Part shown: piece by piece, positions 6,352 to 9,300 of the stretch
How the letters are laid out: each line of letters starts with the position of its first letter
Numbering within the stretch: position 1 is the stretch's first letter
The notes under the pieces: generated by a model
The model's database searches: none
Seen by the model: the letters and a program-made list of their open reading frames with translations, nothing else
What the model was told of the DNA's origin: nothing
Made by a program: the position numbers and the translations under genes
Source of the DNA: Scenedesmus sp. PABB004
Lineage: Eukaryota
NCBI GenBank assembly: GCA_014905635.1
Contig: JABVCE010000015.1
Location: forward strand, 1-64,000
Direction: 5' to 3'
DNA: 64,000 nucleotides

Positions 6352-9300
6352 ATGCGTTCGCTCCCGCGCATGGCGCTCTGCCTGCTGCTGCTAGAGCTGC
6401 TCTCGCCCGCGCCGGCAGCGAGCACCCAGGCGCCGCGGCAGCGGCGGCAGCAGCAGCAGCGGCAGCAGCACGAGGTGCCGCCGGCGCTCGCGGCGGCACA
6501 GGCGCGCGCGGCGGCCGCGGCGGCGGCGGCAGCGGCGACGGCGCCCCCGGAGCAGCGCCGCCGCGCCCTGCTCGCGGCGGGCGCGGCGGCGGCCGCGCGT
6601 AACGCGACCGCGGAGGAGGCACGCTTGGCAGCGCTGCCGGTCGGCAGCACGACCGAGGTGGTGGCGGAGACGGTGCTGCGCGCGTCGCTGCTGGAAGGAT
6701 ACGACGCCAACGTGTTCCCCTGGGCCGAGGCGGGCCCCGCAAACGTGAGCGTCAACCTCGCCCTGCACAAGATCCTCGACGTCGACCTGTGAGAGGGGGG
6801 GGGGGGCGGCACGCGCGCCGGCAGCGGCGCGCGCGCGCCCGGGCCGCTGCCCGCCGCGCCCGCCCACCGCCCCAAGCGCGCGCCCGCCGCCGCCCCGGGC
6901 GCGCAGCTATGGCGGCACCCTGAACATCGCGGTGTGGCACCGGCTCGAGTGGACCGACCCGCGGCTGACCTGGGACGCGGCGGCGTTCAACGTGTCGAGG
7001 CTCTGGTTTGCAAACGCGCAGCAGGGCGACACCGAGATCTGGCAGCCCGACGTCGTGCTGTGGAACGGCGCGCAGCCGATCGCCTCCACGCTCGGGCAGG
7101 AGCCGCTCGCCGTCGACCCGGGCGGCCGCGTCTTCTGGTCGCGCCCGGGCACCTTCCTCGTCGCCTGCAACTTCAGGGTGCGCGAGGTTCAGCCCCCCGG
7201 CGCCGCGCCCGCCGCCGCGGCGCGCCGTGCGTACGGCGACGGCCGCGCCGCGCGCCGCCTGACGCCGCCCGCCGACGCGCCGCGCCCCAGGGGCTGAGCG
7301 CGTACCCTTTCGGTCTGGTCAGGTGCAGCCTTGAGCTCGGGAGTTGGGTTTATGGGCCCCGCTCTGTCGACCTGCACCTGCAGGGCAAGGTGCGGCCCGC
7401 CGTCGGCGCGAGCTCGCGGCCGCCGCCGCCGCCGTCGCCTCCGCTGCCGCTGCCACCACTGCCTCCGCGCGCGCGCTATGCGGCGTGAGCATGGCACGCT
7501 CATCAGCCGAGCGCGGCGCGCAGGGCTACACCGTGGGCGGCAGCATCACGAGCGTCGAGTCGACGGTGTGGACCGAGTACACCATCGCCGGCGTCGAGGC
7601 AAGGCGCTTCACCTACCCGCCCCTCCCCTGCTGCCCACACGGTCAGCGTGGCGGGGGCGGGGCGTGCTCCGGCGCGCGCCGCCGGCGCGGTCAACCGCGG
7701 TCAACCGCGGTCAAGCAACCCAAACCGCGGCCCTGAACCCCGACCGCACGCGCAGAGAGCGGGTGGCCGGTCGTGCTCATCGACGTCGCGCTGGAACGGC
7801 AGAACCTCATCTACCTCATGAAGGCACGGGCGCCTTAACCCTGGGGGCAGGCGGGAGGGTTTAGGGAGAGGAGGGAGAGGGAGGGAGCGAGCTGGGGGTG
7901 ATGGCGGGGCTGCCGCCGTGCGCCGCCCACCGCGCCGCTCGCCCGCGCTCCGCGCGCCGCTCGCCGCAGGTCATCGTGCCGCAGATCATCCTCACCGCCA
8001 TCGCCTTCTCCACCTTCTGGGTGCGGCCGCCCCCCCACCGCGGCACAGCCCCCCCCCCCCCCCCGGCGGCAGTCGCCGCACACGTACACTGTCGCGCGCC
8101 GCGCCGCACGCGCCGCGCGCGCCGACGGCCGCCGCGCCGCGCCCCGTGCGCGCGCGCAGCTGAGCCCCGCGTGCGGCGAGCGCCTCGGGCTGGCCGTCAC
8201 GGTGCCGCTCGCGGTCGCTGTGTACGACCTGCTGACCTTCTCCCAGCTCCCCGTCTCAAACCGCGTCACGCTGGTCAGCGCGATGGGACTGATGGCCTTC
8301 CTCTTTTCGATGGCGCGTGCGGCGGCGGGGAGGGGGGGGAGGGGCAGTGCCGAAAGCGTGGCCGGAGGCGCGCATGCCGCCGCCCACGCGCGCCGCGCGG
8401 CGCCCCGCGCGCGCGCCCGCGGCCGGCGGGCGCAGGCGGTGCTGGTGGAGAACGCGCTGGTCCTGCAGCTCTGGCACCACAGCGAGCACGGCTACTTCAG
8501 GCGAGCGGCGTGCGGTGTGCACGCACGGGCGAGGGACCCGGGCGCGGCACACGCCGCCGCCCGGCTGCGAGCCTGACTCGCCCGCGCCGCGCGCGCCCGC
8601 CGCACCGCGGCCGCCAGGGGCATGCGCGTGCTGGCGGCGACTGGGCTCGCCTATCGGGAGCAGCTCGTGTGGGTGAAGCTGCTCGGCTGCGTGCACCAGC
8701 TCCGGGTCGAGCTCGTGCGGCGCCAGCTCGGTGCGCTGCAGGGCCGCAGGCTCGCGAGCCGCTCGCAGTTCGGGTCCAAGCAGCCGACCGCACACGCCAA
8801 GTCGGGCCTTGCGTGCGAGGCCGCGGTGCGGGACGGCGCCGACGCGGCCGACGCAGCTCCGGACGTGCGCCCGGCGGAGGGCAACGGCAGCGACGGCGGC
8901 GGGAGCGCCGGCGGCGGCGGCATGCTCGGGCGCGCGCGCGGGCGTGTGCTGGCGGAGCTGGGCGAGGTGGGGGTGCAGATGGGCCTGGAGCGGCCGGGGG
9001 AGGAGGACGCCGCGGCGCGGCGCGACGCGGCACTGCTGAGTTGCACGACGCGCGACGAGCTGCGCGTCCACCTGGCCGCCATCCTCGCCTCCCGGCAGCG
9101 CGCGCTCGCGCCGATGCAGCGCCGCCTGGCCAAGGCCAACGCGCTGTTCGGCGAGGACGCCGTCGCGGCGCGCCTGCAAGCGACGCTCACCGGCGCCGGC
9201 GGGAGCGGCAGCACCGACGGCGGCAGCGGTGCGGCACGACGCGCGGCGCGGCGCACGGCGCGGCGCGGGGGGCGCCGCGGGCGCGCCTGCTGTGTTGCCA

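Follow-up and report, generated by a model that had tools for sequence, protein, structure and literature searches.

A probable member of a large, protist-rich clade of cationic-type Cys-loop receptors encoded by the green alga Scenedesmus sp. PABB004

Introduction

Nicotinic-type receptors are usually regarded as having been invented by animals, apart from a few outliers among protists. The aromatic box of nAChR alpha subunits consists of a Tyr from loop A, a Trp from loop B, two Tyr from loop C, and a Trp from loop D of the neighbouring subunit. A Trp in each of loops A, B, C, and D makes up the classical cation-pi set.

In protists, cationic-type Cys-loop receptors have been described as predicted cation channels whose role is unknown (Jaiteh, Taly and Henin 2016, PLoS One, PMC4795631). 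Like these receptors, the protein discussed here is eukaryotic and non-animal, has the Cys-loop cysteines, and carries GE[K/R] at the start of M2. However, the carriers named in that study are Emiliania, Aureococcus, and ciliates, whereas our gene is green-algal. In the alignment of the same study, Volvox D8TYA5 and Monoraphidium A0A0D2MEH8 (2 of 9 green-algal entries inspected) are Cys-less, and its main text does not contain the terms 'vicinal', '13 residues', or '14 residues' (PMC4795631).

The animal receptor most similar to the algal protein in the PDB is human alpha-7 (PDB 9nx0, 9iir, 7koo), with about 27% identity. Both have vicinal cysteines (CC) at the tip of loop C and Trp in loops B and D, and their M2 helices share GE[KR], T6', L9', and V13'. 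Nevertheless, they belong to different clades and differ in several respects. The Cys loop spans 14 residues with YPFG in the algal protein and 13 with FPFD in alpha-7; loop C is longer by 3-4 residues and has Leu at the position of the pre-CC Tyr; Trp replaces Tyr in loop A and at the second loop C aromatic position; and M2 has Pro at 8'.

Orthologues are present in other chlorophycean algae, namely Tetrabaena socialis (PNH02002.1, labelled 'Acetylcholine receptor subunit alpha-like 2'), Gonium pectorale (KXZ46220.1), Raphidocelis subcapitata (Rsub_09573), and Monoraphidium (MAG proteins), and we found no paper that discusses them. They share with our protein the 14-residue loop with F/Y-P-x-G and an M2 of the form CGERL...TVPLAVAVYDLL. 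The gene considered here lies at 6352-9228 on the + strand of the window, that is, the whole 64-kb stretch of DNA that was analysed. It is probably a nuclear gene of Scenedesmus sp. PABB004 for a cationic-type Cys-loop receptor, belonging to a large and protist-rich clade with a 14-residue Cys loop.

Gene structure and predicted fold

The channel gene is a real gene for a subunit of a pentameric ligand-gated channel, and it is already labelled in public databases. The window has a G+C content of 76% and zero N. In the splice model, nine exons (Table 1) are open throughout, and their translation is identical to residues 1-602 of a public Scenedesmus sp. PABB004 protein (P0002; source name 'CHRNA7'), whose numbering is used for all motifs. 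Three of the eight introns (5, 7, and 8) have GC instead of GT donors. This model is a prediction based on the public annotation, the collinearity of the family, and the orthologue P0004, which reads through the same exon junctions without a break.

Table 1. Positions of the channel exons and of neighbouring features in the window
Feature	Positions	Strand	Content
Exon 1	6352..6788	+	Start codon, predicted signal peptide, N-terminal extension, start of extracellular domain; GT donor at 6789
Exon 2	6907..7177	+	Ligand-binding domain core: loop D W156, loop A W198, C233 (7166-7168)
Exon 3	7291..7389	+	Remainder of Cys loop (YPFG, C248 at 7324-7326), loop B W255
Exon 4	7524..7641	+	Strands beta8-beta9, first half of loop C, vicinal C305-C306 (7629-7634)
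Exon 5	7756..7823	+	Second half of loop C (W312), strand beta10, pre-M1 R323; then GC donor
Exon 6	7970..8020	+	M1 helix with kink proline P335; aligned to alpha-7 M1
Exon 7	8160..8312	+	M1-M2 linker, GER (E355 at 8178-8180), M2, M2-M3 loop P379, first half of M3; then GC donor
Exon 8	8436..8500	+	End of M3 (AF2 helix 386-413); then GC donor; interval of the initial annotation stops here
Exon 9	8618..9228	+	Cytoplasmic M3-M4 loop; intact GT donor at 9229
Convergent LRR gene	9422..12127	-	Uninterrupted 901-codon ORF; Pfam LRR_8 2.2e-13, LRR_1 6.4e-11
Segmental duplication, second copy	10922..13894	.	Repeat families D3-D6, D9, D10, D13-D15

Whole P0002 matches Neur_chan_LBD (PF02931; 2.1e-29) and Neur_chan_memb (PF02932; 6e-7), both past the cut-offs. 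When eight exon translations were scanned separately, exons 1, 2, and 3 hit the Neur_chan_LBD profile in collinear order, at profile positions 4-41 (a weak match), 47-127 (translated from 6908-7177; E 2.4e-13, 50.4 bits vs a cut-off of 26), and 130-159 (E 3.8e-4). Exon 7, whose M2 carries T6', P8', and L9', matches Neur_chan_memb weakly, and exons 4, 5, 8, and 9 hit no Pfam family. Exon 1 is identical to residues 1-146 of P0002. The protein encoded by exon 2 is 100% identical both to P0002 and to a second public model from Scenedesmus sp. PABB004, P0001, which skips the exon 3 present in P0002.

A single sequencing run, from a freshwater metagenome, contained a fraction of 0.05 of the sequence words. 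It gave 89 pieces aligned to 6000-12500, of which 74 were less than 90% alike and represent low-complexity matches. The sole clean piece was one 151-base contig covering 6957-7107 with 0 differences, and none of the pieces was informative over the 3′ end of the gene.

The motifs that the initial annotation had reported were all recovered in the splice model. The Cys loop (C233-NFRGLSAYPFGLVR-C248, with 14 residues in between) is interrupted by intron 2, loop B contains GSWVY (LELGSW255VYG), loop C (YPPLPC305C306PHESGW312P) is interrupted by intron 4, and M2 starts with G354-E355-R356, aligned with GEK of alpha-7. HMMER aligned C305-C306 onto the CC of human alpha-7 and showed a one-residue insertion in the Cys loop. 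In the AF2 model, where pLDDT exceeds 90 over most of residues 101-410, the vicinal cysteines fall in a loop (301-311) between strands 288-300 and 312-323, which is the tip of the beta9-beta10 hairpin. Thus, alignment and model both place CC in loop C, as had been claimed. C233 and C248 lie at the ends of strands 220-232 and 245-253; their spacing is 14 vs 13 in animals, and the disulfide between them is a prediction.

A search of PDB sequences gave 304 distinct sequences at E <= 0.001, headed by human alpha-7 (E 1.6e-32, residues 113-418), and the top Foldseek match of the AF2 model was also alpha-7 (9iir_A, E 6.9e-28, rmsd 2.3 A over 317 columns). Pfam, HMMER, AF2, and Foldseek agree on a green-algal Cys-loop channel subunit.

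The N-terminal extension in exon 1 comprises about 80 residues rich in Ala, Gln, and Arg. Its RRRALL motif had been placed after the signal peptide and read as a sign of a cleaved propeptide; it lies about 45 residues past the predicted signal peptide and does not adjoin it. What speaks for a propeptide is a partly conserved R-x-LL (R-[RH]-LL in P0004, P0008, and P0009), and such cleavage now seems doubtful. The AF2 model has moderate-confidence helices at this site.

Relatives of the channel

A library search with the channel protein returned 5867 matches at E <= 0.001, 170 of them at E <= 1e-30. At least 150 library clusters (down to 130.3 bits) outscore the 116 bits obtained by alpha-7 in the PDB search. 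Among 143 relatives with a recognisable Cys loop, this loop has 14 residues in 127, 13 in 14, and 15 in 2. Vicinal cysteines are found in 64 of the 143, including 55 of the 127 with the 14-residue loop. The clade can be recognised by the signature C-x-[FY]-x-G-L-x-x-[FY]-P-x-x-x-x-x-C, together with a GE[RK] pore entrance and often with CC at the loop C tip. A further search, word-indexed and made with a 52-row alignment, passed 4 proteins out of 8000 candidates, all of them already known, and was probably swamped by low-complexity words.

Several elements of the family are retained in our protein. The column of the Cys-loop tip proline P242 is Pro in 143/143 relatives, that of the pre-M1 R323 is Arg in 138/143, the M2-M3 loop proline (here P379) is kept in 128/143, and the GE[RK] entrance is present in 97/143. 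By contrast, the Asp of the [F/Y]PxD motif is absent and is replaced by Gly244 (D 130, G 11, S 1, and E 1 of 143). [quoted passage not shown] (2016, PMC4795631).

For the phylogeny, 63 rows were hand-picked out of the 143, the trait columns were removed, and an unrooted tree was built with IQ-TREE. One branch with an SH-aLRT support of 99 splits the sequences with a 14-residue loop from those with a 13-residue loop. All four named animal sequences (Rotaria, Glandiceps, Trichinella, and UniRef T1JBH7) fall on the 13-residue side. Within the 14-residue clade, every named member of one 15-row group is a green alga (support 99), and it is in the green-algal group that the channel gene sits, apart from animal nAChR subunits as far as an unrooted tree can tell. 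An 8-row chlorophycean group unites our protein with its orthologues (support 98). A FastTree phylogeny of 121 rows, also unrooted, agrees (support 97). The named green-algal relatives belong to five other genera: Gonium, Tetrabaena, Raphidocelis, Monoraphidium, and Neomeris. The clade is described as protist-rich on the basis of the source types (EukProt, MMETSP, and marine metagenomes) and of the few members with names; 30 relative clusters were looked up, and 13 of them gave an organism name.

These results change the meaning of the features that the initial annotation had called nicotinic alpha-subunit hallmarks. As CC occurs in 64 of 143 relatives, it does not define the nAChR alpha family outside animals. 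Given the 14-residue loop in 127 of 143, CC in 55 of these 127, and the split supported at 99, the supposed hallmarks are common features of a protist-rich clade. They give the channel gene no specific tie to nicotinic alpha subunits. Separately, contamination with, or transfer from, animal DNA was considered and rejected in view of G+C content, introns, green-algal orthologues, and the tree.

The ligand-binding site

Four of the five aromatic-box positions are aromatic in our protein (W198, W255, W312, and W156). The fifth, two residues before CC, is Leu303, which we take to be the equivalent of Tyr190. This column is Tyr or Phe in 129 of the 143 relatives, and Leu is unique to our protein; among the 64 CC-bearers, the counts are Y 57, F 6, and L 1. 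In the chlorophycean group, the other three CC-bearers (P0004, Gonium, and Tetrabaena) keep Tyr at this position, and Gonium and Tetrabaena have in common a loop C of the form YP-x-YPCCPDES-x-WP.

An amine or choline-like cue had been proposed as the ligand. The four aromatic positions are in favour of this proposal, but it is weakened by Leu303 at the loop C aromatic position. A nicotinic-type pocket is doubtful, since the loop C Tyr has become Leu303 and the Cys-loop Asp has become Gly244. Nevertheless, because each of loops A, B, C, and D provides a Trp, our leading guess is that the ligand may be a small cationic molecule.

A contending reading, which we find quite plausible while leaning slightly against it, is that the channel responds to neither amines nor quaternary ammonium compounds. 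Its cue might instead be a metabolite, an amino acid, a divalent cation, or pH, and the conserved Trp residues would be structural. The uniqueness of Leu303 among 143 relatives and a loop C longer than that of alpha-7 would fit such a cue, as would Gly244, which changes the coupling interface. So would the drift of the pocket within the group, where the Selenastraceae orthologues have C-x4-C in place of our protein's CC and P0008 has no cysteine there. On the other hand, Trp in loops A, B, C, and D constitutes the classical cation-pi set, and most of the 143 relatives have W, Y, or F at these positions. Jaiteh et al. (2016, PMC4795631) state that not one pLGIC of a unicellular organism has a known biological role, which is also compatible with a non-amine cue.

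Assembly and putative mechanism

The initial annotation proposed a homomeric cation channel. When three copies of residues 100-420 were modelled together, the ipSAE was 0.39, while the best of 3 controls gave 0.00; at least 73% of contacts agreed between runs, and partner pLDDT was at least 68. The contacts are canonical: the complementary face receives loops A and B, and the M2 helices pack against one another. In calibration, the ipSAE mark was reached by 21/30 same-chain-pair proteins and by 0/23 single chains; on eukaryotes the figures were 17/29 vs 0/30, with only 1/7 among proteins without an older solved relative. Our job differed from the calibration in using three copies, and it was run without a custom alignment. 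Since many pentamers of this family have been solved, the pass may reflect the memory of the model. Homomeric assembly, as in alpha-7, is plausible.

The GE[K/R] at M2 -2' to 0' is the cationic-type signature, from which cation selectivity is predicted. A possible course of events is as follows. The signal peptide would direct the protein by secretion into the membrane, where five copies would form a ring. A small extracellular molecule would bind between subunits beneath loop C and open the pore, which would be lined by E-1', T6', and L9' and conduct cations. Opening might then depolarise the cell or admit Ca2+.

The missing M4 and the 3′ end of the gene

Membrane segments M1-M3 are encoded at 7970-8500, and no M4 exon was found anywhere in the 64-kb window. 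This absence had been overlooked in the initial annotation. A conserved MA-M4 tail is present both in the twin model P0001, on another contig of 268,594 bases, and in the orthologue P0004, and these two represent the complete form. A 6-mer search through the six reading frames of the window did not find the 63-residue M4 tail of P0001, and this tail was not among the matches listed by a permissive tblastn of the window (E <= 50). A hydropathy scan of 9229-22000 yielded two hydrophobic stretches, neither of which matches the P0001 tail; the one at 13162 does not resemble the P0004 tail either. The last 26 residues of P0002, the public model on this contig, have no match in the aligned relatives. 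Thus, the window copy as assembled cannot encode a complete four-helix subunit, and either the copy may be truncated or the contig may be misassembled.

In the first case, which is possible but to be held tentatively, the window copy would be a 3′-truncated duplicate (a pseudogene or dead allele), its M4 removed by a rearrangement tied to a 10.7-kb duplication and the LRR gene, and only the twin would be functional. In addition to the missing tail and the unmatched end of P0002, this account has the neighbourhood in its favour. The LRR ORF has its stop 190 bases past exon 9, at the site expected for the M4 exon. Furthermore, the channel gene is flanked by the two copies of a direct duplication (the first at 181-3149, with an offset of about 10.7 kb and 79-97% identity), and such divergence indicates that the duplication is real rather than a collapsed assembly. 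Against this account, all nine exons are open and the shared exons are identical at the protein level to those of the twin; any truncation is consequently very recent or not real.

In the second case, which we consider unlikely, the 3′ end in the window has been created by misassembly, and the organism has a single intact gene that is represented redundantly or with a mis-join by the two contigs. In its favour, the assembly has two contigs that each carry a public model, and the exons common to both models are identical; the region, at 76% G+C, is also rich in simple repeats. However, the difference of 3-21% between the flanking repeat copies is not what a simple duplication in the assembly would look like, and the window contains no N.

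Implications

The name CHRNA7 implies that the gene is genuinely orthologous to animal nicotinic alpha-7, whether by descent or by uptake from an animal, and that acetylcholine opens the channel; although alpha-7 is the top PDB match by sequence and fold, and CC, the loop B Trp, and GER are all there, this is very improbable in view of a Cys loop of 14 and not 13 residues, a position across the branch with support 99 from 4/4 named animal sequences, the at least 150 library clusters that score above alpha-7, a G+C content and introns that resemble the rest of the window, orthologues in five other green-algal genera, and Leu as the Tyr190 equivalent. Where an algal protein is called 'CHRNA7' or 'acetylcholine receptor alpha-like', the name has been transferred from a best hit and is not evidence of cholinergic function.

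Instead, algae and other unicellular eukaryotes have a large group of such channels, to which the window gene belongs. Together with the orthologues in Gonium, Tetrabaena, Raphidocelis, Monoraphidium, and Neomeris, it establishes cationic Cys-loop receptors in chlorophyte green algae, and the vicinal CC, the motif by which alpha subunits are usually recognised, is widespread among protist relatives. Such organisms can be cultured, and the role that these channels had before nervous systems arose can be studied in them. A more far-reaching and rather improbable interpretation is that the vicinal disulfide and the Trp/Tyr box are ancestral to all cationic Cys-loop receptors, predate animals, and have been kept in many algae and other protists and lost repeatedly, with the algal channels sensing a quaternary-ammonium or amine cue (choline, acetylcholine, or betaine). 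If this were true, 'cholinergic-type' chemoreception would be a pre-metazoan invention that could be studied in culturable green algae.

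Gene structure and public models

[quoted passage not shown] All acceptors are AG, while the internal donors are GT in five of eight introns and GC in the other three (introns 5, 7 and 8). The window has 76% G+C and contains no N. Homopolymer C or G runs lie inside several of the introns, for instance at 8030-8064 and 6793-6806.

Exon 2 by itself matches Pfam Neur_chan_LBD (E 2.4e-13), and profile positions 4-41, 47-127 and 130-159 fall collinearly on exons 1, 2 and 3; when eight exon translations were scanned against Pfam, four returned no family. A word-indexed search with exon 2 yielded three proteins from 69 candidates, two of which are public models of Scenedesmus sp. 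PABB004, a green alga in line with the initial annotation, that are 100% identical to it, both under the source name 'CHRNA7'. P0002 (628 residues, on a 903,188-base contig) is the model for the window's contig, and P0001 (600 residues, on a 268,594-base contig) is its twin. Residues 1-602 of P0002 are identical to the splice model, and the gene is already in the public annotation.

An 827-residue orthologue, P0004, shares 74% identity with the channel protein over the core and is continuous across the junctions within the Cys loop and loop C. The contigs that carry it are no longer than 3,240 bases. That is too short for comparable introns, since the eight introns of the window gene sum to about 1,000 bases; we infer that P0004 is transcript-derived and count it as indirect evidence for the splice joins.

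Features of the channel gene and its surroundings
Feature	Position	Strand	Remarks
Channel gene, exons 1-9	6352-6788, 6907-7177, 7291-7389, 7524-7641, 7756-7823, 7970-8020, 8160-8312, 8436-8500, 8618-9228	+	Splice model from ATG at 6352
GC donors (GC-AG introns)	7824, 8313, 8501	+	Required by the splice model
Divergent neighbour	4409-5992	-	Signal-peptide-like start; weak match to a single PD40 beta-propeller repeat (E 3.9e-4), just under cut-off
LRR ORF	9422-12127	-	901 codons, uninterrupted; LRR_8 2.2e-13
Direct segmental duplication	181-3149 and 10922-13894		79-97% identity, offset about 10.7 kb

The 3′ end and its surroundings

The copy in the window lacks M4, the last transmembrane segment. 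The C-terminal tail of P0001, 63 residues long, contains a typical MA-M4 segment, and the tail of P0004 is closely similar. By contrast, the hydrophobic part of the P0001 tail shares no 6-mer with any frame of the window, the matches listed from a permissive tblastn of this tail on the window were all of low complexity, and two hydrophobic stretches downstream of exon 9 do not resemble it. The last 26 residues of P0002 match nothing among the aligned relatives, and exon 9 is closed by an intact GT donor at 9229. Either the M4 exon of this copy was lost through rearrangement or the contig is misassembled at this end of the gene.

The LRR ORF is convergent with the channel gene, its stop end lying 190 bases beyond exon 9, and it is intronless, as compared with eight introns in its neighbour. 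On the other side, the start of the divergent neighbour lies about 360 bases upstream from the channel ATG. Both this PD40-repeat gene and the channel gene sit between the two copies of the duplication. The duplicated segment takes in the 5′ portions of a pair of minus-strand LRR paralogues, along with about 1.8 kb upstream of each gene.

Motifs and fold

The initial annotation had described a Cys-loop channel from four motifs, and this observation was confirmed. Each is found in P0002, whose numbering is used here. The Cys loop, C233-NFRGLSAYPFGLVR-C248, has 14 residues between its cysteines; loop B carries GSW255VY; loop C reads YPPLPC305C306PHESGW312P, with vicinal C305-C306; and M2 starts with G354-E355-R356. 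The Cys loop of animals is given as 13 residues in excerpts of PMC11085791.

By sequence, human alpha-7 is the top PDB match (E 1.6e-32, over residues 113-418); in all, 304 distinct sequences from the PDB fall at E <= 0.001. The HMMER alignment sets CC on the alpha-7 CC and GER on GEK, with the algal protein longer by one residue in the Cys loop and by four in loop C. An AlphaFold2 model built from a 52-row alignment has a mean pLDDT of 77.6, with values above 90 for most of residues 101-410. Because strands are modelled at 288-300 and 312-323, flanking the vicinal cysteines, these occupy the tip of the beta9-beta10 hairpin; model and HMMER alignment agree in placing CC in loop C, as the initial annotation had proposed. 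The top Foldseek match is also alpha-7 (9iir_A, E 6.9e-28, rmsd 2.3 A across 317 columns).

Relatives and trees

Searching the full library with P0002 gave 5867 proteins at E <= 0.001, 170 of them at E <= 1e-30, and at least 150 library clusters (130.3 bits or more) outscore alpha-7, which reached 116 bits in the PDB search. From 161 proteins gathered, 18 without a Cys loop recognisable by the search pattern were dropped, leaving 143 aligned, with P0002 and four cluster mates among them. The 14-residue Cys loop is found in 127 of the 143, and among these loop C has vicinal CC in 55, C-x4-C in three, a single Cys in one and none in 68. A 13-residue loop occurs in 14 sequences (CC in eight) and a 15-residue loop in two (CC in one).

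Of 30 clusters looked up, 13 carry an organism name. Named members on the 14-residue side include Gonium pectorale, Tetrabaena socialis (source name 'Acetylcholine receptor subunit alpha-like 2'), Raphidocelis subcapitata, Monoraphidium MAG proteins and Neomeris dumetosa, together with the diatom Pseudictyota dubia, and Triparma columacea (a cluster mate). The 13-residue side includes Rotaria, Glandiceps, Trichinella (unc-29), a UniRef arthropod-type entry and a Gymnodinium smaydae transcript. Three proteins from marine metagenome and Tara sources (P0131, P0147 and P0152) form a tight group with a 13-residue loop and vicinal CC, and their amino-acid composition differs from the remaining alignment. 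The Pseudictyota dubia protein (P0016, MMETSP), within a 20-row FastTree group, has a 14-residue loop and GER; excerpts of the 2024 diatom-channel survey (PMC11085791) call diatom pLGICs Cys-less.

In an unrooted FastTree of 121 near-complete rows, a branch of support 97 sets off the sequences with 14 or 15 residues. Rows with 14 and 13 residues were likewise separated (SH-aLRT 99) in an unrooted quick IQ-TREE search (LG+C20 PMSF) on 63 rows hand-picked from the 143, whose Cys-loop and loop-C columns had been taken out. There, P0002 belongs to an 8-row chlorophycean group (support 98) nested in one of 15 rows (support 99), where every named member is a green alga. The CC state must change at least 10 times on this tree and is seen on both sides of the 14/13 split.

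Binding site and working model

Four of the five aromatic-box positions are tryptophans: W156 in loop D (W in 133 of 143), W198 in loop A (Y 82, W 48), W255 in loop B (W 141) and W312 in loop C (W 102, Y 21, F 13). GE[RK] is found in 97 of the 143 relatives.

Three departures had been missed by the initial annotation: Leu303, Gly244 and a proline at M2 8′. The position two before CC, the equivalent of Tyr190 in muscle alpha subunits, is Tyr in 57 of 64 CC-bearers, Phe in six and Leu only in the window's protein; the whole column has Y 93, F 36 and L 1, and P0004 has Tyr. Gly244 replaces the Asp of [F/Y]PxD (column D 130, G 11) and is shared by all eight rows of the chlorophycean group; the window protein retains Arg323. 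In Table 1 of Jaiteh et al. (PMC4795631), this Asp has 93% conservation and a salt bridge to the pre-M1 Arg. The M2 proline occurs in 11 of 143 relatives. The loop-C cysteines also vary within the chlorophycean group, with CC in Scenedesmus, P0004, Gonium and Tetrabaena, and none in P0008. In the Selenastraceae orthologues P0005, P0006 and P0007 (Monoraphidium, Raphidocelis), C-x4-C replaces vicinal CC, e.g. YGDCAFPPCRDEWP, possibly an alternative disulfide in the same place.

By analogy with the family, a signal peptide would target the subunit to the membrane, where five copies would assemble into a ring. A small extracellular ligand would bind the subunit interfaces beneath loop C; relayed to M2 through the Cys loop and the M2-M3 loop, the change would open a cation-selective pore (E-1′, T6′, L9′). 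As to the ligand, for which the initial annotation proposed an amine or choline-like cue, the four tryptophans speak for a cationic molecule, but Leu303 and Gly244 speak against a nicotinic-type site.

A three-copy self-assembly prediction, a job unlike its calibration and run without the 52-row alignment, passed with ipSAE 0.39 versus 0.00 for the best of three controls. In the calibration, 21 of 30 proteins solved as paired copies of one chain reached the mark, against 0 of 23 solved as single chains; on eukaryotes the figures were 17 of 29 and 0 of 30, but only 1 of 7 among those lacking an older solved relative. Contact agreement between runs was at least 73% and partner pLDDT at least 68. 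The predicted contacts pair loops A/B with the complementary face, and M2 with M2. This family has many solved pentamers, so the pass may stem from the predictor's memory of them.

Class assignment

Jaiteh et al. 2016 (PMC4795631) report a bona fide Cys loop in four protist species, and the supplementary files list nine green-algal entries. In the two that were inspected, Volvox D8TYA5 and Monoraphidium A0A0D2MEH8, the Cys-loop cysteines are missing. The terms 'vicinal', '13 residues' and '14 residues' are absent from the main text. Full-text searches, which do not extend to subscription-only literature, found no paper on Cys-loop receptors of green algae or on vicinal cysteines in the pLGICs of protists, and papers mentioning strain PABB004 bear titles on other topics.

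The initial interpretation holds only in part: the motifs are those of a Cys-loop channel, but CC and the 14-residue loop do not serve as nicotinic-alpha hallmarks. Taken together, loop counts and trees indicate that both are clade-wide features of protist-rich cationic-type Cys-loop receptors, with no special likeness to nicotinic alpha subunits. The gene encodes a chlorophyte member of the protist cationic Cys-loop receptors, and its public name, 'CHRNA7', is transferred and misleading. The clade-wide pattern, a 14-residue loop with frequent vicinal CC, is a more interesting result than the single gene.
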